DNA of 42,430 nucleotides, taken from a virus. Every line of letters begins with the position of its first letter. The stretch's first letter is position 1. The notes beneath the pieces are model-generated. The model saw only the letters and a list, made by a program, of their open reading frames with translations. It was not told the origin of the DNA and did no database searches. The stretch lies in IMG/VR virus record IMGVR_UViG_3300031578_000123, positions 1 to 42,430 of that record; one strand, written 5' to 3'. This document shows positions 7,272 to 35,396 of the stretch, piece by piece. Position numbers and translations under genes: made by a program.

Positions 7272-7277
7272 TCCTGA

Positions 7278-7517
7278 TTATAACTCCATAGCATATTCGT
7301 TTGGAAAACCTGTTATCAACCAATCAACCAGGTCATTCATGTCTTTTGTTTTCAGTGGTTCATGCCTGAGGAATGGGAATCTACCTATGTCATATCCGTG
7401 GAGTTTTACCTCAACTAGGATTGTAACTAGGTAGGTGAAATCTATCACATCATCTTCACTGACATGGTGCAGTACCATTGGTCTTCTTCTTCCCATGTGT
7501 ATTCTTATTACATTCAT
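7278..7517 (-). CDS. Hypothetical protein
   Basis: 79-aa ORF with AGGAGGAAC RBS, in the operon. Confidence 0.6.
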   Translation of the reverse strand: MNVIRIHMGRRRPMVLHHVSEDDVIDFTYLVTILVEVKLHGYDIGRFPFLRHEPLKTKDMNDLVDWLITGFPNEYAMEL

Positions 7518-7654
7518 TTGTTCCTCCTAACCCTATGCCTTTTGGATTCCTTGCCATGTTTCATTCCATGAATCATAGCATCCACATAAACCTTGTGCAG
7601 TAATGTTTCCAGCCGTGTCCAATGTTCCTCTGCTGTTTGTTTGTCTGATTTCAT
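7514..7654 (-). CDS. Small hypothetical protein (46 aa, MKSDKQTAEEHWTRLETLL...)
   Basis: Below the ORF-track size cutoff. ATGA-coupled at both ends (to the methyltransferase stop and the next start); AGGAGAAATAA RBS. Confidence 0.5.
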   Translation of the reverse strand: MKSDKQTAEEHWTRLETLLHKVYVDAMIHGMKHGKESKRHRVRRNK

Positions 7655-8734: not shown

Positions 8735-9463
8735 TATATTATCCTCCCTATCGCAGTTAATAATTTCCTTGCTGTTATTAAACCTATGCCCTCTACCATA
8801 GCCAAATCCTCAGGTTCTTGAACCATAACCCTCCAAGCAGTCTCGAATTCTCCAATCAAAGCCTTTGCTCCTTTCTCACCAACCACACTTTTGTTGTGGT
8901 TATCTCTTATTCCCATAAGTGTCTGTATTTGATTATTCCATTCCTTTGGCACGACCTTATGCTTTATGTACCTTTTGAGCGTGGTGTGCTCTGGCTTTAG
9001 GGAATTATTGTGCATGGTTACCAAAGCCTGTGCTGTTTCTACCCAATCGAATGTTGGTAAATATGTAATTCCAGCCTTGTCTAGCTGGTATATCCAAGCA
9101 TAGAATAGAGCAATGCTGGTTCCAAACCTATGCCCTGGTATAAGGAACTTCCTATCCTTGGATAAATGCCATACCTGTGTTCCTGGCTTCTTGTTGTGCA
9201 ATGTACCATTGAACACTCCCTCATTCAGCAGATACATTTCATCCACTTCCAGCATATCCTTCCTTAGCTGTGTCTCTACATCATCCAAGCTACTCAGCAT
9301 TTCACCAGCCTGTTTCCTAGACACACCTATTCTGTGTCCATCAATGGCTATCCATGTATAGTCAGGTAAGCCTTTGTTATTGAATGAACCCCTGATGGTA
9401 TCAACAGATTGTTGGATGATGGATTCAATCTCTACTGGCTCAAAATGTATCCACGAATATCAT
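8734..9463 (-). CDS. ERCC4 (XPF/Mus81)-like nuclease domain plus C-terminal helix-hairpin-helix; needs a +1 shift at UUU-UGA (9445..9440) or is disrupted
   Basis: A strong RBS (AAGGAGG) and the ATG at 9463 give MIFVDTF then a stop. The +1 frame continues EPVEIES...LPDYTW...IGVSRKQAGEMLSSLDD (ERCC4-like pattern) to VEGIGLITARKLL (HhH). The track ORF starts only at GTG 9324. Confidence 0.6.
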
Positions 9464-9528
9464 GGATGCACCTCCTTTTGCAGAGTATGGGAAATTACAC
9501 CTTGCTGTCCCACATTGTTTATGTACCA

Positions 9529-10305
9529 TCACTCGCCTTGAATCATCCTTATGGCCTCTGCTATTTTATCATATGATGGGTCCTCAAACTCCATACCGAC
9601 CAGTGCAGTAGGCACGGATTGTTCATCAACCTTGCAGTAAAATTTACCATTCTGCTTGTAGGTATGCAGCATTAAATCCGTGGAATCACCAAGGGATGAG
9701 AAGCCTGACCTTTCCCTCTCTCCAGTTCTTGAGTCCTTAATCTCACCAGTCTTGAAGTCTGTCATTGGTTTGTACTCATCCCTTGAATGATGGGTTAACA
9801 CCAGGTTCTTGCCATGAGCCTTAGCTTGGTATATCAAACCTCTCATCCTGATGTTAGGTTCCCTGTATTCTATTGGAAGCAGACTCACCCTCAACCTGCT
9901 TTCACTACGAAGTAGGTTACCATTAGGGTCAAGCTGTATTTCCTGTTTCTCCTGTAAGTATGCTGTGCATATTGTTTCCCACAATAATGTACCTGTGTCT
10001 ATGACACCAGTAACCATTTCACTTTTCAGAAACCTTAGGTACTCAACCAAGAATTCATACCACAGTTCCTTAACTCCAGTAACAATCTTACTTTGCTTGA
10101 TGGTAACCTCATCTATGGTTCCCTGCATAGGTACTACGAATGGTTTAGTGGTGACAAAACCACCATCCGTGTCCTTCTTAAACCTCCATTTAGCCCTATC
10201 ATAACCACCCAAATCAAACTCAAGGTGTTGGATAGGTTTAGGAAATGTTAATGCTAAGGAGGACTTTCCCGACTTATCTTCCCCCCAAATGCCACAACAT
10301 ATCAT
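9529..10305 (-). CDS. Sak4-like (AAA_24) RecA-fold recombination ATPase
   Basis: N-terminal Walker A GIWGEDKSGKSSLALTFPKP and a size (258 aa) typical of AAA_24/Sak4. Confidence 0.8.
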   Translation of the reverse strand: MICCGIWGEDKSGKSSLALTFPKPIQHLEFDLGGYDRAKWRFKKDTDGGFVTTKPFVVPMQGTIDEVTIKQSKIVTGVKELWYEFLVEYLRFLKSEMVTGVIDTGTLLWETICTAYLQEKQEIQLDPNGNLLRSESRLRVSLLPIEYREPNIRMRGLIYQAKAHGKNLVLTHHSRDEYKPMTDFKTGEIKDSRTGERERSGFSSLGDSTDLMLHTYKQNGKFYCKVDEQSVPTALVGMEFEDPSYDKIAEAIRMIQGE

Positions 10306-10505
10306 TCCTTTACCTCTCCTAATCTATTCCTAAGCTCTTTAGCTTCATCACCATCCAATTCAACAACATACCCAGTATGCAGAAGGAATTGTATTTTGTC
10401 TTCCACAATATCTGTTCGGTATATGTCACCTTTAATAAAGGGTAATAGATATTCAATACCCTCTACATACATTTTGTGTTCGGTTCTGACATCATATATA
10501 TTCAT
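10302..10505 (-). CDS. Hypothetical protein
   Basis: 67-aa ORF, overlap-coupled on both sides. Confidence 0.6.
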   Translation of the reverse strand: MNIYDVRTEHKMYVEGIEYLLPFIKGDIYRTDIVEDKIQFLLHTGYVVELDGDEAKELRNRLGEVKE

Positions 10506-11344
10506 TCCTTCATCTCCTGTTCCACTATGCCTTTAGGACAATATTCCGCTACCTCACAATACCCTCTGCATCTATTGCCTCCCCAGCTTTCCTCATCATT
10601 GCATGGGTCAGGCAGGTATTGTGGATTCTCTTTATACTTTGATAATGCTATTAGGAGTTTATCCTTTTTCCAGTCAAAATAGTTAATAACTTCCTCATCA
10701 TCCAATCTCTTAATAGGCACCAGCTTTATGTTAAAGTCTATACCTCTAGTCCTTGCTATTTGCAATCCACCATCCCTCACTGTTACCTGCAACTGCATCT
10801 TACCTATCTTTAGTCCACGTCCTTCCAGCATCACCCTATACCTGTTCAATTGTAATTCCGATTCCCTTAGGTTAATGGTGCTTGGGTCAACGCTAAATTT
10901 AGCATCCTTGCCTTTACCTTCCTTGACTATACCAAGTGCCCTGACCATCCTATAACTACCCCATGTTTTGTAATCTATGAGGGTCCAGGCACCATCCTTT
11001 GGTTCCAGCAAATCAAATATATCATGTCCATCTGGACCAAGAGCAATCTCTGATGGGAGGTTTAGCTCCTTAGCTGCTTCCTCTAGCTTTTGGTGATGCC
11101 TTGTTCCTAGCAGGGCAAATGCTTTATTCTGTGGGTCTATGGTATAGTCCCTAGTTATCTTGAGGAATTCTATCATTGTTCCATTAAGCAACTGTGTGGT
11201 GCTTGGTACACCTGTCCATACCCTCTGCTCCGTGATGGCTTTTATTGTTGGTAATGTCAAGCACCTATCAGTGCAATGGTTTATGCAATCATCTATGAGG
11301 ATTGGGTCTGTTGCTTTTGGACATACTATCCACTTTGGTGGCAT
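10502..11344 (-). CDS. Cas4/RecB-like PD-(D/E)XK exonuclease with Fe-S cluster cysteines
   Basis: N-terminal Cys cluster (CPK...CINHCTDRC); LIDYKT (D-x-K) core; C-terminal CRGYCEVAEYC. Confidence 0.85.
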   Translation of the reverse strand: MPPKWIVCPKATDPILIDDCINHCTDRCLTLPTIKAITEQRVWTGVPSTTQLLNGTMIEFLKITRDYTIDPQNKAFALLGTRHHQKLEEAAKELNLPSEIALGPDGHDIFDLLEPKDGAWTLIDYKTWGSYRMVRALGIVKEGKGKDAKFSVDPSTINLRESELQLNRYRVMLEGRGLKIGKMQLQVTVRDGGLQIARTRGIDFNIKLVPIKRLDDEEVINYFDWKKDKLLIALSKYKENPQYLPDPCNDEESWGGNRCRGYCEVAEYCPKGIVEQEMKE

Positions 11345-11414
11345 TATCTATCTCCTTTTGTGCTTCTGCCTCCGCACGGTCATCCATCTTTACATCATAT
11401 GGTTCTGGCTTCAT
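11289..11414 (-). CDS. Small ORF (41 aa, MKPEPYDVKMDDRAEAEAQKEID...) overlapping the nuclease start
   Basis: ATG at 11414 with GAGGAGGTAACA RBS; overlaps 10502..11344 by 56 nt in another frame. Confidence 0.4.
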   Translation of the reverse strand: MKPEPYDVKMDDRAEAEAQKEIDNATKVDSMSKSNRPNPHR

Positions 11415-11855
11415 TGTTACCTCCTCTTCTTTTAGTGAGCCTGAGCCTACACTCCAGCGTTGTCCGCCTAGAACCTCTCCACTCCATCCGCCGTCAACCT
11501 GCCTAGCAGGATTGGCCAATCTGTCCTTGGCCTAGGCTCACCTTGCTCACCAGCTAGTGCAAAGTTTGTTTCCATTGCACCTTATCCCTGCCCTGTCGCT
11601 TTGTGCAGTTCCTAAAGGAATGTGATAAAAACCAACTCATTTAACACTTCAGGCTTAGATAGGTTTTCTGCCTTGGCCTGACTTCAATGACCACAGACAA
11701 GTCCAGAGGGCAACTCCCTATCGGTAGCTGGCAAGCTCTTGCTGGCTTGGTCTGTTTAGGTCTGCCTGTCATCCTTTTGGCTAACCGATATGCCTATGGC
11801 TTTGGTCTTTTCCAACCTCTCAGGACACCAGCAAGTCTTATTTAATTGTCAATGT
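11415..11855 (-). ncRNA. Candidate structured non-coding RNA or long structured leader (unclassified)
   Basis: 441 nt with no credible ORF inside a tightly packed operon. GC is much higher than the flanks (59/100 by hand count for 11456-11555). Several perfect helices, e.g. 11533-11552 with 11433-11449, hairpins 11514-11532 and 11498-11510. Strand assumed from operon context. Confidence 0.5.
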
Positions 11856-12491
11856 TCAGGGGGTCAGGATGTGCCATATACCATTGGTATCCTTGCTTAT
11901 CTTACCAGTGGATTCCATCTCAGGAAGGAATACCCTGTGTAATATGTTATCAATTAGCTTGGCATCACCCTTTACCACCGCATTCTGGAATACTAACTGA
12001 TTCCATTCCTCCTCAGCTTTGCCATCAAGGAGTTCCAATGCTCTGGCTACGGCATCCATAGGGGAACTCTGTATTGCACCTTCACCAGCTAGTCCAATTA
12101 CCTCCCATGCTTCCCTAGCTGTGGCCTTCCCCTCATCCCTGTTCCACATCATGTGACCAGAAGTAAGCTTCATGTGGTGTATCATGTTGACAGTGTTCCT
12201 AATGTCCTGGTTCTCAGGGATAAGTTTGGCTAGGGAATCCGCATATACTGTCCATTGGCTTACCTTCCTTTTGTTAAGTGGGAAACTTAACTGAGCTATT
12301 GGGAATGGATATGGCTCCACACTTTCAATGACCTCTATATCATTGTAGTTGAGGTTAACATATGTTCTGGCTGGTGGGAATCTATCCACCAGTTCCGTTG
12401 TAAACCTCTCCAGCTTACCTTTGAATTCCCTTAGTGGACTCCTCTGATACCCTTCTATTAAACCTCTGATGCTAACTAATTCTTCTGACAT
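11856..12491 (-). CDS. Hypothetical protein (211 aa)
   Basis: Long ORF with GGAGGGTGAC RBS, in the early operon. Confidence 0.7.
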   Translation of the reverse strand: MSEELVSIRGLIEGYQRSPLREFKGKLERFTTELVDRFPPARTYVNLNYNDIEVIESVEPYPFPIAQLSFPLNKRKVSQWTVYADSLAKLIPENQDIRNTVNMIHHMKLTSGHMMWNRDEGKATAREAWEVIGLAGEGAIQSSPMDAVARALELLDGKAEEEWNQLVFQNAVVKGDAKLIDNILHRVFLPEMESTGKISKDTNGIWHILTP

Positions 12492-29468: not shown

Positions 29469-29722
29469 TGTGTGATATTTGTGATGTAATGCTAAGGTAT
29501 GGGATAACTGATGTCCATTCCAGCAAGGCTATTTCCTTGTGTCTGAATTGTCCTGAACCAGTGTGCCTATTGGGAGTAGACCATAAACAGCATATGTCCC
29601 ATGGTAGGATAGCTGAGGCTTCCAGACTAGCTGGTTCTGGTCTTGGTACAGCAGGGATAGCCAAGACAATGCACAAGAGCAAAAGACAGGTATTAAGATA
29701 TTTGGAGGAAGTAAATGCCTAA
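29468..29722 (+). CDS. Cys-rich plus HTH small DNA-binding protein embedded in the head module
   Basis: CDIC...CLNCPEPVC, then GSGLGTAGIAKTMHKSKRQVLRYLEE (LuxR/sigma region-4-like HTH by eye). Confidence 0.6.
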   Translation: MCDICDVMLRYGITDVHSSKAISLCLNCPEPVCLLGVDHKQHMSHGRIAEASRLAGSGLGTAGIAKTMHKSKRQVLRYLEEVNA

Positions 29723-32700
29723 TGGTTTTGCTGAAGAACTAAGGAAATGGAATGAACAACTCCAAGGGAGTATAACTAGGCTGACATCCGTTGAATCAGA
29801 GGTTGCGGGACTGAGGAAGAAAACTGAGAAGCCATTACCTTGGTGGCAGAGATTGATATTTTGGACTCCTCCGTCCCAATGGCAAACAGTAAGTAAATTG
29901 GCAGGGGAGCAGATTCCTTCTCCAGCTACACCAGAGTTTTGGGCTAAGAGACCTATTGAGGAGAAGCTACAAGAGGAACTTGTTGCCATAGATGATTATA
30001 ACCGTGCTGCATGGTTCTCCGTACTTTATTCTGTTAGTCCAGATGACCTTAGGAAGCTAGGTATCACCAGCTTTGAGGACTGGGTTGAAAAGCATCCTCC
30101 TGAGGCTGGGACATCCACCACTGATTTAACCAGAGCAAAGGAATACATAGACACAATACTTTCTGTTGCTGAACCAACAAAACCTACCATAGCTACTGAG
30201 GAAATGATAGCCGAAGGATTCCTTACAGAACCTTTGGAAACAAGACCTAGATTCAAGGGCATCCATATAACAACTGTGGAAGAAATGACAAAGTGGCTCA
30301 GGAAGGAAGTACCTCCAGTAGAACGCCCTCCAGGATTAACAGAAGGTGGATTGTTAGGCTATCTTAAGGAGGAAAGAGGTCTCAGTGATGAGGAATTAGC
30401 CTACATAGATGAATCCGTTAGTCCTTTTATACAGATGGTTGAAGAGTATGAGGAAGGAAGGGAACAAACAGCACGGTATAAAGCTGGGTTAGAAACTCCA
30501 GAAATGCCTGAATTGTCCATTGGTCAGAAGATTAAACTGATTGCTTCCCAACCGATACTAGCCTTGATTGACACCATGCAGCCCTATTGGACATATTGGG
30601 ACTACCCTAGGTCTGCTATCCTTGCCAGACTTTCACACCGTATTGAGGAGACATTGAGTTTTCCCATTACTATGCCTGGTGCTAAACCTACACCAGAGGA
30701 GGAAGGATTACTTGATGAATTGGATACTCTATATGAGGCTAACAGGGAAGCTGGCATGGATTATTGGATGGCTCACAGCAAAGCATGGCAGGATTGGGAA
30801 CTTAACCATTGGGCAAAGATGGGCATTGAGATAATCTCTGACCCTGTGTCATATCTTGGGTTTGGTCTCTTGATGAAGGCTGGGAAGGCAACCAAAGGTA
30901 TACCCGTCATAGGTAGGATAATGGGTGGGCTAGGCTCCTTTGAGCGTGGGTTTATAGCAGTTACCGAAGCGTTACCTACATTCATTAAGTCCAAAATAAT
31001 AAAACTTCCAAAAACCACAGGACAGAGGGCTGCTTTGGCTGGTGCAGAGGTTAGTGATACCATAATATCAGTGCATGGTAAGAATGCTTCTGGTTTAGGG
31101 AAAACATTAAAGCAGATAACTCCAGATGATTTTGTTAAACTAAATGAGGAGTCAATAGCCCGTGCAGTAGCACACCCAGATGTTGTTGACCCACTTACCC
31201 AGCTTGGTTGGTCTTATATCAAAAGAACTCCAATGACCCATAATGAACTGTTGGAATGGGGAGCTAAGGTTACCTCCAAACTAGGTCCTGATGATGTCAC
31301 ACCAGGCATGGTTGACAACATAGAGAGAATCCTTGAACACGCAAAGGTTAAGGGTAGCAGGTTTCCTGTTAACAACCTTGACCTAGCTGCTAAGGAAATC
31401 CTACTAGGAACCCTGAATGTGGCTGATTCACCTAGTAACATGAAGGTCATAAAGTCCTTAATCAGGAAAGCCTATAAGACCAGCATTGATGAAGCCTTAG
31501 AAACAGCACGATTACCAATAACCCAATCCATCAAGACCGCTTCCCTAAAAGCTGAGAATATAGTTTGGTCGGAAGCCACCGAAAAACTATTCTTTAAGAG
31601 GATGCACCAAGGCTATGTTGCTGGTATAATGCACGAAGTCCTTGACCCACTAGAAACCCAAGTATGGCGTGGTTTTATAGACAAACAAATAGTTATGCCA
31701 TTTGCCAGAGCATACCTCATAACTGGTTCCTATGCTCCTTGGAACTGGTTTGAAGAAGTATTCAGGACTGTGCTTGGTAGAGGTGGAGGAGTCTATGGCA
31801 AGAACGCTCCAGCTAGATTAGAAAATCTTGCTATGGGGTTAATGCTTGATAGGGATGTTCTTAGAGGAGCAGAATTAGCCAAGATGTCATATACCAATAT
31901 ATTGAAGAAAAGGTTGCTGAAACCTGGTGCTCCCGTTGGCATGGGTGAAATATCTGAGGCTGCATTACTCAAGGAAACTGCTGAGGCTGTTGGTAAACCA
32001 GCACTAGAGAAACTATTGCTCCTTGGCTGGTTACCAGGTGGCAAAGGTAGAGCAGTCCATGAGGCAATGTATTTCCCAATCAGAGCTTCCCAGTGGGCTG
32101 GTGGTATGCAGCGGGCTGGATATGTTGCTAAGAAATTCTTTGACAACCTTGATGATATAGCACCTGATACAATGGCAGCTCTCAGAGGAGCAAAGCCTTC
32201 TAAACCACCAAGCGTTATAGGTCAACCTAGGAAAGCACAAAAGGCTTTTCTCCAACGGTGTGATGATAATGCTTTTATTGGTCCAACAAAGACCGAGAAC
32301 ACACCTAGAGAGTTTTCCATGAAGAATACCTCCTTAGCCGAGGGTTATTCTGCCAGTCTAAAGTATCCTGAGCTTGGTGACACCAGAGATTTCATCCTAA
32401 GCCATATTGAGACTGATAATTGGGATAATGTTCTTGCTGTTACTGGTGAAGCCAAGACCATGATGGCGGATAACCTAATCAATTCTCCAGAAGGTAGTAG
32501 GATATTCCTCAAGAACATTACCGATGACATACTGAAAAATGCTGAGAAGGTAACCACACCAGATGAGCTTATGGGTTATGTGGATGCTCTTAGGGAAATT
32601 ACAGGGATAAATCCTAAAACCATCCAAAAGCTATTTGTTGGTCTCCATGACAAAGCATCCAAGCTACCATCAAAAGCAGCAAGGGTAGAAATGTATAATG

Positions 32701-35396
32701 TTGGTCACCAGAGCATTGCTCCATTCCTTGACGAGGGTGAAAAGCAAGCTGGGAGGTTGTTAAACTTTATAAAGAAGAATTCAAAGGTATTGACTCCCGC
32801 ACAGGTAACAGAGCTTAACAAAACCCTTAACATATACACAGCCAGGATAGCAGCTTTGCAGGACACCAGGCGTTTAGCTATGGCTAGGAGCCAAGAACTT
32901 ATAGCTCAGGGTTTTGGTCCTGGTAGTGATAAGTTTGTGGCTGAAAGGAATGAAATTTGGATGAAGCACCTTAATGAGGTGGACCCTGAGTTATTTGCCA
33001 CACAGGAAATGCTGGCTGAGGGTATAGATACCTTAATAACACCTAGGAACATACCAAAACCCACCATAAATGCCTCAGTTAGAGGATTAACTCCAGCCGA
33101 TGTAGCTGCATTGCATTATGGCACAGGAGACCAACTAGCCTTTGGTTTAATGAATTCCGAAATGCTGATGCAAAAACCATACTACATGAAACTGACCATA
33201 GCCAGAGCTAATGCTATGGCAGCAAGAGCCAATACCACCCGTGAAGCCTTGGGATTTACCGATGATGCCATATCCCAAGTTTATGACCAGATACTTTATA
33301 GTCTGAGGTCTAGTCCAGAATTCCACAATATGCTTACCAGACCCTATGCTGAGGTGGATAACTTTGCCAGAGATTTGGAATCCATCAAATTAGCTGGTGG
33401 CACCAGTCCTGATGCCATGAAAGCAATGCAGGATTATGCTACCACATATGCTAACAACCTGAGGAAATTGGACATATACAAACCTTATGTTCCACCAGCT
33501 AAACCCCCAAAGAAACCAGCAGTCAAACTTCCTGGTGAAGGCTCCGAAGATTGGTGGCGTATTAAACAGGAAGCTATGGATAAAACAATGATTTCCTATC
33601 ACCAAGACTTCACCGACTATTCCAACATGAACGCTTTGGATGATGCTATGAGACACGTATTTCCATACTGGGTATATGAATCCCAGCGGTGGTTCTGGCT
33701 TGCTAGGAACATGGTAACCCATCCAGGAATTATGAACACTTGGGCTAAATACATGGATAACACGGACTTTGGTTACATCCATATGCCAGGTACTTCCCTA
33801 GATGCCAATGTCCTCAGAGGTACTGTTTACAAAGGTGGCATGAGTACCCTTGTCCGCAGGGACTATCCAGAATACTATGATAGGATGTTCCCTGAATTAT
33901 TTGAATCAATGGATTATGCCCAAAGACTAGGATTCTTCCCCAATATATTCTGGAGTATTCCAGTATCTATGTATGGTGGCAGACAACCACAGTTTGGACA
34001 GTTACTTCCTGCTGTGGCTAGAACTCCATTGGACTTATATGTTGCCTCCAACCCTGATTCCGAATCTGCTAGAGCATTGCAGGATATACTATTCCCTGAT
34101 TACTTTAGGCAGTATCTCCAAATAACCCAAGCCTCCCATATGGCTAGTGTTGGACAAATCCAAAGAGGCATTAACGGTGTGTATATCTGGGAAAAGATGC
34201 AGCGTAGTGAGGAACTTACCTTAGAAGAACAGGAACTATGGGATGCTGCTAGAGGTAAAGTAGCTTCCTATGCTCCACTAATGGAACACGGTGGCATATA
34301 CCGCCTAAGACATGAGGACAGAATAGCAGCCTATGATTGGTGGGGTAAATTCATTGAGGAGAAAACCGGTGTGTCTGTGGAAATGCAAGATGACCTGAGA
34401 AAGCACGGTATGTCCGTAGGTGATGTCTGTCCTGGGTTATCACAGTTGGATATGGCACAGATAGAGGAAGCATTGGAGTACAAAAGATGGATTGCACCTA
34501 GAGCAACTGCACCACTAAGACCTAGTAATGAGATTGAGGTTAACCTAATCCTATCAGAGTTTTGGGGTATGGTAAGGCAACATGGGGATACCTCAGAAAG
34601 TTCCATAAAGGAACTGGAGAGACAAGCCTTTGTTGAGAGGAGTATCTCCGCTGAGGATTATGTTACCAGGGTTGGAGATATTATGGAGGAAAATGCTAAG
34701 TATATCCACCAGCTCAGAGGTGATAAGTTTGACCACACCACAGGGGAGTGGGAAGCCAATCCTCAGAGTAAGAGTAAATTCAAGATTGTCCCTGTAACCC
34801 TTGATGAAAGGTCAGCCTTTTATACCGAAAGGGGAGTTAATCTGTCCATGTCCACCCTAGATGAAATGCTGGCTATGTGGTATGATATATCCCCGCAGGA
34901 GAAGATAGACCCTGAGACTGGTACTAGATACATGGATTGGGGAACCTACTTTGCCACTATGGATGCTATTGAGAAATTGCTTCCTACCAGCCTAAAAGCC
35001 GAATGGCAATCCTATATGTCTAGGAATAATACTCCAGGCTGGCTCATGTATAGAAATGCTACCAAGCAATATCTAGCTCCGTATTGGAATGTAACCAATG
35101 TCATTAAGGACCAATTCACCCCAGATGAACAGTCCCTAATAGATGAGTATTACATGGTTAAAGATATTGACCCAGCCAGAGCCGAGGAGATTCAGGACAT
35201 GACCAGACCCAATGGACTAAAGCTTATATCCCAATATAGGTCTGCTCTTACCAATGCCAGGAAGAAGCTAAGAATGACTGTTCCAATGGTAGATGCCCAA
35301 CTTATGTTTTGGGGTAGGACTTCTACATTTCTTACTCCAGAGGCAGAGAGGATGTATAACCAATTAGTACAGGAAGCTAAGGGGTTCCCTCAGTGA
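29715..35396 (+). CDS. Giant protein (1,893 aa) of unknown function; candidate internal virion/ejection protein
   Basis: Uninterrupted 5.7-kb ORF between portal and scaffold; no catalytic motif recognised by eye. Confidence 0.8.
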   Translation: MPNGFAEELRKWNEQLQGSITRLTSVESEVAGLRKKTEKPLPWWQRLIFWTPPSQWQTVSKLAGEQIPSPATPEFWAKRPIEEKLQEELVAIDDYNRAAWFSVLYSVSPDDLRKLGITSFEDWVEKHPPEAGTSTTDLTRAKEYIDTILSVAEPTKPTIATEEMIAEGFLTEPLETRPRFKGIHITTVEEMTKWLRKEVPPVERPPGLTEGGLLGYLKEERGLSDEELAYIDESVSPFIQMVEEYEEGREQTARYKAGLETPEMPELSIGQKIKLIASQPILALIDTMQPYWTYWDYPRSAILARLSHRIEETLSFPITMPGAKPTPEEEGLLDELDTLYEANREAGMDYWMAHSKAWQDWELNHWAKMGIEIISDPVSYLGFGLLMKAGKATKGIPVIGRIMGGLGSFERGFIAVTEALPTFIKSKIIKLPKTTGQRAALAGAEVSDTIISVHGKNASGLGKTLKQITPDDFVKLNEESIARAVAHPDVVDPLTQLGWSYIKRTPMTHNELLEWGAKVTSKLGPDDVTPGMVDNIERILEHAKVKGSRFPVNNLDLAAKEILLGTLNVADSPSNMKVIKSLIRKAYKTSIDEALETARLPITQSIKTASLKAENIVWSEATEKLFFKRMHQGYVAGIMHEVLDPLETQVWRGFIDKQIVMPFARAYLITGSYAPWNWFEEVFRTVLGRGGGVYGKNAPARLENLAMGLMLDRDVLRGAELAKMSYTNILKKRLLKPGAPVGMGEISEAALLKETAEAVGKPALEKLLLLGWLPGGKGRAVHEAMYFPIRASQWAGGMQRAGYVAKKFFDNLDDIAPDTMAALRGAKPSKPPSVIGQPRKAQKAFLQRCDDNAFIGPTKTENTPREFSMKNTSLAEGYSASLKYPELGDTRDFILSHIETDNWDNVLAVTGEAKTMMADNLINSPEGSRIFLKNITDDILKNAEKVTTPDELMGYVDALREITGINPKTIQKLFVGLHDKASKLPSKAARVEMYNVGHQSIAPFLDEGEKQAGRLLNFIKKNSKVLTPAQVTELNKTLNIYTARIAALQDTRRLAMARSQELIAQGFGPGSDKFVAERNEIWMKHLNEVDPELFATQEMLAEGIDTLITPRNIPKPTINASVRGLTPADVAALHYGTGDQLAFGLMNSEMLMQKPYYMKLTIARANAMAARANTTREALGFTDDAISQVYDQILYSLRSSPEFHNMLTRPYAEVDNFARDLESIKLAGGTSPDAMKAMQDYATTYANNLRKLDIYKPYVPPAKPPKKPAVKLPGEGSEDWWRIKQEAMDKTMISYHQDFTDYSNMNALDDAMRHVFPYWVYESQRWFWLARNMVTHPGIMNTWAKYMDNTDFGYIHMPGTSLDANVLRGTVYKGGMSTLVRRDYPEYYDRMFPELFESMDYAQRLGFFPNIFWSIPVSMYGGRQPQFGQLLPAVARTPLDLYVASNPDSESARALQDILFPDYFRQYLQITQASHMASVGQIQRGINGVYIWEKMQRSEELTLEEQELWDAARGKVASYAPLMEHGGIYRLRHEDRIAAYDWWGKFIEEKTGVSVEMQDDLRKHGMSVGDVCPGLSQLDMAQIEEALEYKRWIAPRATAPLRPSNEIEVNLILSEFWGMVRQHGDTSESSIKELERQAFVERSISAEDYVTRVGDIMEENAKYIHQLRGDKFDHTTGEWEANPQSKSKFKIVPVTLDERSAFYTERGVNLSMSTLDEMLAMWYDISPQEKIDPETGTRYMDWGTYFATMDAIEKLLPTSLKAEWQSYMSRNNTPGWLMYRNATKQYLAPYWNVTNVIKDQFTPDEQSLIDEYYMVKDIDPARAEEIQDMTRPNGLKLISQYRSALTNARKKLRMTVPMVDAQLMFWGRTSTFLTPEAERMYNQLVQEAKGFPQ

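Follow-up and report, generated by a model that had tools for sequence, protein, structure and literature searches.

Positions 11415-11855 of the 42,430-nt stretch of viral DNA analyzed here (the window; IMG/VR record IMGVR_UViG_3300031578_000123) form a 441-nt gap between the stop codon of a minus-strand gene at 11856..12491 and the ATG of the next gene at 11414. We conclude with high confidence that this gap encodes a conserved structured RNA belonging to a widespread modular family of uncultivated phages. The evidence for a structured RNA in the gap is comparative. We observed a modular anatomy with the helices P1, P2, and PX, a noncoding nature, and, in relatives, the exchange of one module for a unit resembling transfer RNA (tRNA). 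That the RNA is made on the minus strand and shielded from translation is well supported. As a whole, the data are best explained, with a probability of about 0.5, by an intercistronic element of this RNA family that serves transcript processing or stability.

Relatives were recovered from IMG/VR with the 211-amino-acid (aa) product of the upstream gene and with an exonuclease, which yielded few contigs each, and by exact-pattern scans of viral, metagenome, and genome collections, which, once filtered for a complementary 5′ strand, gave at least ~40 distinct members. As a check on pattern ascertainment, 36 loci were fetched by protein alone. A covariance model, R1, was built from 15 members, excluding the window and the related loci L001 and L002; it covers the leader, P1, the core of the first module (D1), the junction, and the 5′ strand of P2. 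On the 42-kb window, R1 matched 11716-11855(-) with 54.7 bits (E = 6e-16), while the next match had an E value of 0.94. Of the 33 protein-anchored loci, 21 have an R1 match immediately after the homolog of the upstream gene, and at least 35 matches were found among 100 metagenome loci, some of which hold two units; L172 and L237 carry tandem units. A noncoding stretch after the homologous gene is also present in L001 and L002 (~71% protein identity) and in L004 (34%), and the blocks TTAAATA..CTTGCTGGTGTCC and CCRAGCCAGCAAGAG(..)CCAGCTACCCGAAAG are common to the window and these three loci. Two small open reading frames (ORFs) occupy the slot instead of the RNA in L005 and L343, and the L005 arrangement indicates that the RNA element is accessory. 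The sole genome-assigned member, L309, is a contig of a Dehalococcoidia metagenome-assembled genome, and the phages that host this RNA are possibly phages of Chloroflexota.

Searches for a known counterpart were negative. BLAST of the region and of a 34-nt conserved core against 50,697 GenBank phages gave no match. In cmscan runs against Rfam 15, the window had no match at gathering thresholds, the interval 11200-12000 had none at an E value of ≤10, and 24 related loci gave nothing relevant except tRNA matches in two relatives. We found no description of this RNA family in the literature; a large survey of candidate viral RNAs lists unnamed tRNA-like candidates, none of them tied to this element (PMC10690425). 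A preliminary description of the gap had posited a novel structured RNA on the minus strand and had suggested an Rfam scan together with a search for covarying homologs. The scan left the window without a match, and the homologs in dozens of phage contigs, the R1 match, and the covariation of P2 described below all support that proposal.

Composition, coding tests, and boundaries

The gap had been described, from the sequence by eye, as GC rich, free of ORFs, and dense in helices within an otherwise tightly packed operon. The count of 59 G+C in the 100 nt at 11456-11555 was reproduced, and G+C content is 49.0% over the whole gap versus 42.7% over the window. Every frame is interrupted on both strands, with 5 to 11 stops each and a longest open run of 61 codons in the gap. 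All eight helices that had been drawn are exactly complementary at their positions. The minus strand of the gap folds with a minimum free energy of -141.2 kcal/mol (z = -1.77), with 6 of 100 shuffles equally stable, and the fold of the plus strand is weaker (z = -0.22). Single-sequence folding of the gap is not significantly better than chance, and helix density by itself is therefore not evidence of structure. The operon is also less than uniformly tight: gaps of 204 nt (9325-9528) and 379 nt (7272-7650) are present as well. These two minus-strand gaps have no R1 match, and their fold z scores are only -1.8 and -1.3 (simple shuffles); the gap at 7272-7650 shows a ribosome binding site (RBS) and then an ATG, so a small ORF is likely there.

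The chance ORFs of the window and of L002 pass through the conserved block GCCAGCAAGAG in different frames, giving KPARA and SQQE, respectively, and module interiors differ by tens of bases between members. Since the frames of the block differ, the interiors vary in length, and the leader carries stops in all three frames, the gap is noncoding, in agreement with the earlier view that it holds no coding gene. The leader, UUGACAAUUAAAUAAGA (11836..11853, minus strand), was read from the sequence as AU rich, and family alignments give the consensus UUAACAAYUGAAUAG. In the window its stops are TGA at 11851-11849, TAA at 11844-11842, and TAA at 11840-11838, one per reading frame. Three-frame stops occur in 22 of 40 family leaders; the controls gave 1.4% (random 25-nt windows) and 6.5% (shuffled leaders). 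The leader often provides the stop codon of the gene upstream of it. We considered the leader as a phage promoter and rejected this: it occurs once in the window, no more than expected by chance at 2 mismatches, and is too short for -35/-10 spacing.

At the other end, an unstructured spacer at 11415..11434 (minus strand, read from the sequence) contains the RBS GAGGAGG (11426-11420). The RNA of the window stops 8 nt short of this RBS and leaves it uncovered; the distance is 8 to 15 nt in the family. The order of closing helix, UAAAGGAGG, and ATG is the same in most members.

RNA modules and the tRNA-like exchange

Module D1 (11738..11835, minus strand) was delimited by the R1 match and by the pairing statistics of P1, which is formed by CUUGCUGG (11835-11828) and CCAGCAAG (11745-11738) and extended to 9 bp by a U·G pair. 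P1 was among the drawn helices, as CTTGCTGG/CCAGCAAG, and recurs in homologs. It is paired at 96.9% over 23 protein-anchored sequences, and two of its pairs are changed on both sides, for example, as CUCGCUGG/CCAGCGAG in L350. Inside D1, UGUCC, AUAUCGG, a GNGAAR stretch, and ACCGAG are conserved. We propose that P1 closes a putative H-type pseudoknot. Its strand a (UCCUG, 11825-11821) would pair with a′ (CAGG, 11768-11765), and its strand b (UCGGU, 11788-11784) would pair with b′ (ACCAA, 11751-11747), with one C-A mismatch in the window. Across members, the strand after UG and the bases just 5′ of GNGAAR read CCUG/CAGG, CUCCU/AGGAG, CCAC/GUGG, and CACU/GGUG, and a/a′ complementarity averages 3.82 bp within a sequence versus 3.47 bp between sequences. 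The pseudoknot statistics come from an anchor-based script, and MAFFT was inconsistent on D1 interiors. UCGG/CCGA (b/b′) never varies among members. P1 (9 bp including the U·G pair) and UCGG/CCGA (4 bp) are contiguous on the 3′ strand, the leader is unpaired, and b/b′ is mismatched in the window; stacked on each other, the two helices would span 13 bp, which matches a tRNA acceptor/T-arm minihelix in size.

The drawn helix ATCGGT/ACCGAT was dropped, as the family pairs UCGG locally with CCGA and ACCGAU belongs to the next domain, D2. Two other candidates were rejected: a hepatitis delta virus-like fold with D2 as P4, for which the strand order is unsuitable, and a likeness to the signal recognition particle Alu domain (CCAGCUAC), a string coincidence in a different structure.

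D1 is followed by the junction AGCUUG (11732..11737, minus strand), which is variable in the family alignment at 2 to 6 nt. In the lineage of the window and L001, CUUG of the junction can pair with CAAG (11545-11542) and extend P2 outward, a candidate pairing specific to that lineage. Module D2 (11550..11731, minus strand) is closed by P2, CCAGCUA (11731-11725)/UAGCUGG (11556-11550), with the family form CCAGCYA/URGCUGG; RNAalifold recovers P2 on 34 sequences. The list of drawn helices had omitted this second conserved helix of the family. P2 shows the clearest covariation in the family: when only sequence context was used to place its 3′ strand, U-A occurs at the variable pair in 29 members, C-G in 9, U·G in 2, and C-A in none, and the flanking pair is G-C in 27, G·U in 6, and A-U in 3. 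That P2 tolerates G·U without C-A favors an RNA on the minus strand, as do a G·U pair in P1 of the second unit of L190 and the stronger fold of that strand. D2 holds a GNRA-capped hairpin, CC-GAUA-GG (11724-11717), which is CCC-GAAA-GGG in most members. Its interior ranges from 16 to 168 nt, the window having the 168-nt insert with the hairpins TCAGGC/GCCTGA and GTGCAA/TTGCAC. The remaining drawn hairpins fall in variable, lineage-specific inserts.

Module PX (11435..11549, minus strand) was recognized by the recurrence of its motif after D2 in relatives. Its helix, UGAGCCUA (11540-11533)/UAGGCUCA (11449-11442), had been drawn as TGAGCCTA/TAGGCTCA and recurs in homologs. It has a possible outer helix, GUGAGC (11550-11545)/GCUCAC (11440-11435), and two hairpins lie inside it (11532-11514 and 11510-11498). 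In the family, the consensus reads CCUGAGCC ... (U)AGGCUCAGG, also written CCUGAGCC/GGCUCAGG and CCUGAGCC...UAGGCUCAGG. The motif follows D2 in at least a dozen members, among them L128, L148, L137, L192, L170, and L309 and also L350, L362, L363, L365, L369, and L374. The strand GUGUAGGCUCAGG is common to the window and L309, and at position 7, L137 and L192 have A-U in place of C-G. The 5′ strand of PX in the window is atypical, with GG where the consensus has CC. Both hallmarks of the family, a P2 that closes the second domain and a PX-type helix, are found in the window. Many members have an extra last module, D3, a G-rich helix GGGGUGGGG-UG ... CCAGCCCCACCC of freely variable sequence, which the window lacks. 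GC-rich long hairpins also lie within the first 100 to 300 nt after the homologous upstream gene in L348, L359, L367, and L373, which have no R1 element; these hairpins (GGGCCUGUGUGGG...CCCACCAGGCCC in L359) resemble isolated D3 modules.

In relatives, P1 can enclose something else. The P1 strands of L175 (6394-6486) enclose a cloverleaf with a D-arm, a long variable arm, and the T-arm GGGUUCAAAUCCC. This cloverleaf scores 36.6 bits on the Rfam tRNA model RF00005 (threshold, 29), and ARAGORN calls the unit tRNA-???, with an abnormal anticodon loop of 6 or 8 nt. In L196, L241, and L250, a D-arm GGCGGAAUAGGUAGACGC and a T-arm GGGUGCAAAUCCC lie between the same P1 strands, with 60 to 100 nt inserted. 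A tRNA-like unit sits in the D3 position (3′) in L369. In L309, such a unit and one of the pseudoknot type are arranged in tandem and have identical acceptor sequences; the tRNA-like gene of L309 (1037-1124, minus strand) has G33 in the anticodon region. L352 (3747-3894) scores 28.1 bits on RF00005, below the threshold of 29, and has a 93-nt insertion, an encoded CCA end, and an abnormal anticodon region. The tRNA-like genes of L175, L309, and L352 have class II features and an acceptor of 8 bp, and they are either fused to the RNA family or adjacent to it. Since both occur within the same P1 strands in relatives, the pseudoknot module and the tRNA-like cloverleaf are interchangeable, and the UG after P1 corresponds to tRNA positions 8 and 9. 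The earlier statement that the gap has no tRNA signature is true of the window but does not extend to relatives, where a tRNA-like cloverleaf replaces the first module. ARAGORN found no transfer-messenger RNA in the window or in 12 relatives, and there is no Rfam intron match, the flanking genes being complete, separate ORFs that differ between loci; the absence of transfer-messenger RNA and group I/II intron signatures noted previously thus stands.

Operon context and competing explanations

The minus strand has a 12/12 match to a sigma-70-type promoter (TTGACA-18-TATAAT) at 13118-13089. A second such promoter lies back to back with it on the plus strand (TTGACA-17-CATAAT with an extended TG), and the AT-rich segment 13089-13148 (28 to 35% GC) is likely a divergent early control region. 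From the minus-strand promoter, the gene order is ORFs of 64, 97, 211, and 41 aa, a Cas4-like exonuclease (10502-11344, minus strand; phrog_2139, 3.4e-09), and a Sak4-like annealing protein (9529-10305, minus strand; phrog_124). Farther on are a methyltransferase and a family A DNA polymerase, and a primase/helicase lies upstream. No integrase was found among the ORFs scanned, and an attachment (attP) or integration site was rejected as an explanation of the gap. In the structural module, a 1893-aa ORF (29715-35396, plus strand) has no PHROG match at an E value of ≤0.001.

The upstream gene of 211 aa (11856..12491, minus strand) is the most frequent 5′ neighbor of the RNA family: besides the 21 protein-anchored loci, 8 pattern-fetched loci have its homolog immediately 5′ of the RNA. 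The protein has no Pfam, PHROG, or PDB sequence match. Its AlphaFold2 model has a mean predicted local distance difference test score of 84.7, and the top Foldseek matches are the OB-folds of SSB, Stn1, and PrgE, at E values of about 0.03 only; from the modeled fold, we take it to be a probable SSB-like protein with an OB-fold. The proximity of an SSB to Sak4 would agree with what is known of Sak4 systems. Other upstream neighbors are a weakly RecT-like 420-aa protein and a 150- to 180-aa family. The next gene after the RNA in the window is a small, acidic 41-aa ORF (MKPEPYDVKMDDRAEAEAQ...; 11289..11414, minus strand). The ORF shares 56 nt with the start of the exonuclease gene, in another frame; L001 (60 aa) and L002 (88 aa) retain its N terminus but not its length or C terminus. 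Across the family, downstream genes are diverse and include the 41-aa ORF and zinc-ribbon, MazG-like, HNH, exonuclease, and other genes.

Two relatives have distinctive arrangements. In L190 (1100-1680, minus strand) the order is D1-D2-D3, a 42-aa ORF, D1-D3, and the next ORF, so that the units bracket a single gene. The second unit has no D2 and has a G·U pair in P1 (CUUGCUGG/CUAGCAAG), and both units end in near-identical D3 helices (GCCGUGGGGUG...GCCCCACGGUC). In L042 (9450-9720), a GC-richer, unrelated phage, a compact RNA of ~185 nt is followed by an intrinsic terminator (GCCCCGGUAAGUGCCGGGGUUUUUUU) and then by an HNH endonuclease gene. We also scanned 375 loci with a descriptor of the type II hammerhead (C-GAA-A/stem III-U-H, stem I hairpin, CUGANGA-G). 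It matched only L349 (3717-3789), L364 (3978-4077), and L370 (487-578). In each case the motif immediately follows the SSB-like gene, and stems I and III covary among the three loci. These motifs have C-GAAA, a 9-bp stem III with a long loop, a UC cleavage site, and CUGAUGA or CUGAGGA followed by G. The descriptor found no hammerhead core in the window.

A working model of the intercistronic element can be outlined as follows. The RNA would be transcribed within the early operon from the sigma-70 promoter at ~13118-13089(-), and the leader with its three-frame stops would release any ribosome ahead of it. D1, as a mimic of a tRNA minihelix, would be cut like a pre-tRNA, by RNase P at its 5′ side and possibly by RNase Z or E at its 3′ side, and the mRNA pieces so produced would have their ends shielded by the folded modules. 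Stability and output could thereby come to differ between the SSB-like gene and the recombination genes downstream, and the cuts may also set free a stable RNA fragment, as a product or by-product. In this outline, the RNase P cut and the effect on expression are inferred, as is the pseudoknot fold. Punctuation of the transcript in this manner, argued by analogy, is possible and the most parsimonious mechanism, and we advance it tentatively. In its favor are the tRNA-like swap, the bracketing of a single gene, the three-frame stops, the uncovered RBS, and the self-cleaving-type motif that three relatives have at the same junction. Small regulatory RNAs of phages (C4 of P1/P7 and CI of P4) are established substrates of RNase P.

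Several observations weigh against processing by punctuation or against details of the fold on which it draws. Three of the nine P1 pairs never vary, and double changes are confined to the two mentioned above. The support for the pseudoknot from a/a′ complementarity is weak (permutation P = 0.039), and the fifth b/b′ pair, which we tried and rejected, is G-A in 5 of 17 sequences. In the window, ARAGORN calls no tRNA in D1, RF00005 has no match at an E value of ≤10, and no RCCA follows the P1 helix. The RNase P step is drawn by analogy of shape only, and the hammerhead-like motifs of L349, L364, and L370, which rest on the descriptor, are not reported by the Rfam hammerhead models. The pattern-fetched members were ascertained on the 3′ strand of P1 and the 5′ strand of P2, leaving roughly 20 protein-anchored members as the unbiased sample. 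Finally, P1, P2, PX, and UCGG/CCGA are conserved in sequence well beyond the needs of pairing; because the helix strands are overconserved, a sequence-specific partner, protein or nucleic acid, is suggested, for which simple punctuation offers no explanation.

That last point is what one would expect if the RNA were a stable trans-acting noncoding RNA whose modules are excised or just build up and whose operon position is incidental. It could be a tRNA mimic or decoy directed, for example, at nucleases or enzymes of the host that target tRNA, or it could join the OB-fold protein in a ribonucleoprotein. We regard a trans-acting tRNA mimic or OB-fold ribonucleoprotein as a serious rival, although on balance an unlikely one. 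The helix strands are conserved though the flanking protein is only 30 to 40% identical, the cloverleaves that replace D1 have abnormal anticodon loops and hence are not decoders, the ~185-nt L042 unit is self-contained with its intrinsic terminator at the end, the linkage to the OB-fold gene is seen in 21 of 33 loci, and the slot is variable and accessory, with two small ORFs in L005 and L343. Most members, however, have no promoter or terminator of their own, and the leader motif occurs once in the window; the RNA also lies beside RecT-like and HNH genes with no adjacent OB-fold gene, no target or partner can be named, and units that flank single small genes fit punctuation better. A broader formulation spans both modes of action: the D1 pseudoknot would be a new mimic of the tRNA acceptor/T-arm, interchangeable with a class II cloverleaf and arrayed with D2 and PX as a phage RNA device, serving either RNase P-driven punctuation as in mitochondria or a trans-acting ribonucleoprotein or decoy whose partner would be a tRNA-binding host factor or the neighboring OB-fold protein. 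We think this somewhat doubtful.

The remaining explanations are much less probable. The preliminary description had also suggested a riboswitch-like leader for the downstream nuclease/recombinase genes, and a cis-regulatory leader of that kind or one that binds a protein would account for the location of the RNA directly upstream of an RBS in nearly all members, for the multistem junction of D1 with its conserved junction nucleotides, and for the order of element, terminator hairpin, RBS, and ATG in L042, which is like that of a transcriptional riboswitch. Yet the downstream gene is not constant across members, the RBS is not sequestered but lies free 8 to 15 nt past the last helix, the window has no terminator and only L042 has one after the element, module number and type vary as would not be expected of an aptamer, and no Rfam riboswitch matches, all of which make a leader improbable. 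About as improbable is an element acting at the DNA level, such as a replication origin or single-strand initiation site, a Chi-like recombination signal, or a small mobile insertion. Such an element would suit the replication/recombination module in which the gap sits, its presence or absence at the same slot among relatives, and the sequence conservation of its inverted-repeat strands; P1 has GCTGGTG, 7 of 8 bases of Escherichia coli Chi, and the exact octamer GCTGGTGG occurs in L136, L175, L196, L241, and L347. Chi-like sequences are present in the window at 11835-11826 (GCTGGTGT) and 11554-11547 (GCTGGTGA), on the same minus strand. The likeness to Chi probably stems from the tRNA-like U8-G9 that follows the helix, and enteric Chi is not expected in Dehalococcoidia, from which the sole genome-assigned member comes. 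The tolerance of G·U with C-A absent and the strand preference of the fold both point to RNA, the orientation is always that of the genes, the three-frame stops and the abutting RBS are features of RNA and translation, and the unit has no flanking direct repeats or terminal inverted repeats and no transposase nearby. A decayed protein-coding gene or chance structure in a spacer is hardly credible: small ORFs in the slot of L005, L002, and L001 and the single-sequence z score of only -1.77 would fit, while the blocks are conserved across very distant phages in different frames with indels that are not multiples of three, R1 finds the window at E = 6e-16, and P2 covaries.

If the reading as an intercistronic RNA element is true, phage biology gains a widespread RNA family of at least dozens of members that has no Rfam model and no GenBank phage representative, and the swap of pseudoknot for cloverleaf on one helix is a natural experiment in tRNA mimicry. 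The hammerhead-type motifs at the same junction lead to a testable claim, namely, that phages punctuate early operons by several interchangeable RNA-cleavage devices. For annotators, the family model would account for GC-rich gaps that look "empty" next to SSB and recombination genes in phage genomes from metagenomes.

Comparison with known RNAs

The preliminary description had likened the element to the large RNAs ROOL and GOLLD. Neither is matched by cmscan at an E value of ≤10, and GOLLD, ROOL, HEARO, OLE, and the other 4227 Rfam 15 families have no match in the window at the gathering score. GOLLD and ROOL are likewise found in phages, several hundred nucleotides long, multidomain, tRNA associated, and of unknown function; the present RNA family differs in being shorter, in its variable number of modules, and in always lying between operon genes.

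Likenesses also exist to the YrlA Y RNAs (PMC4201824) and to the noncanonical 8/4 and 9/3 allo-tRNAs (PMC5389517), with which the tRNA-like modules of relatives share a long acceptor/T stack (8+5 or 8+6 bp). These modules also share with them a D-arm and variable region of the class II type, abnormal anticodon loops, and occurrence in phages. The family has no Ro60 gene, no Ro-binding stem, and no Rfam YrlA match, and the window module is a proposed pseudoknot rather than a cloverleaf and is followed by D2 and PX. For hammerheads located on either side of one prophage gene, a role in the processing of long phage transcripts has been proposed (PMC3088659). Like the family, they are intercistronic, follow the orientation of the genes, and sometimes bracket single small genes, but the window element has no hammerhead core or Rfam ribozyme match, and its cleavage would need a host enzyme.

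The C4 and CI RNAs of P1/P7 and P4 are likewise phage encoded, part of an operon transcript, and nondecoding, and their acceptor-stem-like helix is a substrate of RNase P. They have no sequence or covariance model similarity to the window element. They measure ~77 nt and work as antisense RNAs that pair with repeats close by, whereas the RNAs of the present family are 110 to 450 nt long, modular, and, by our proposal, pseudoknotted; no antisense target for the element was found, and the window has one copy of it. These comparisons place the element with known phage-encoded tRNA-like and processing RNAs, with a real chance that it is something more distinctive.

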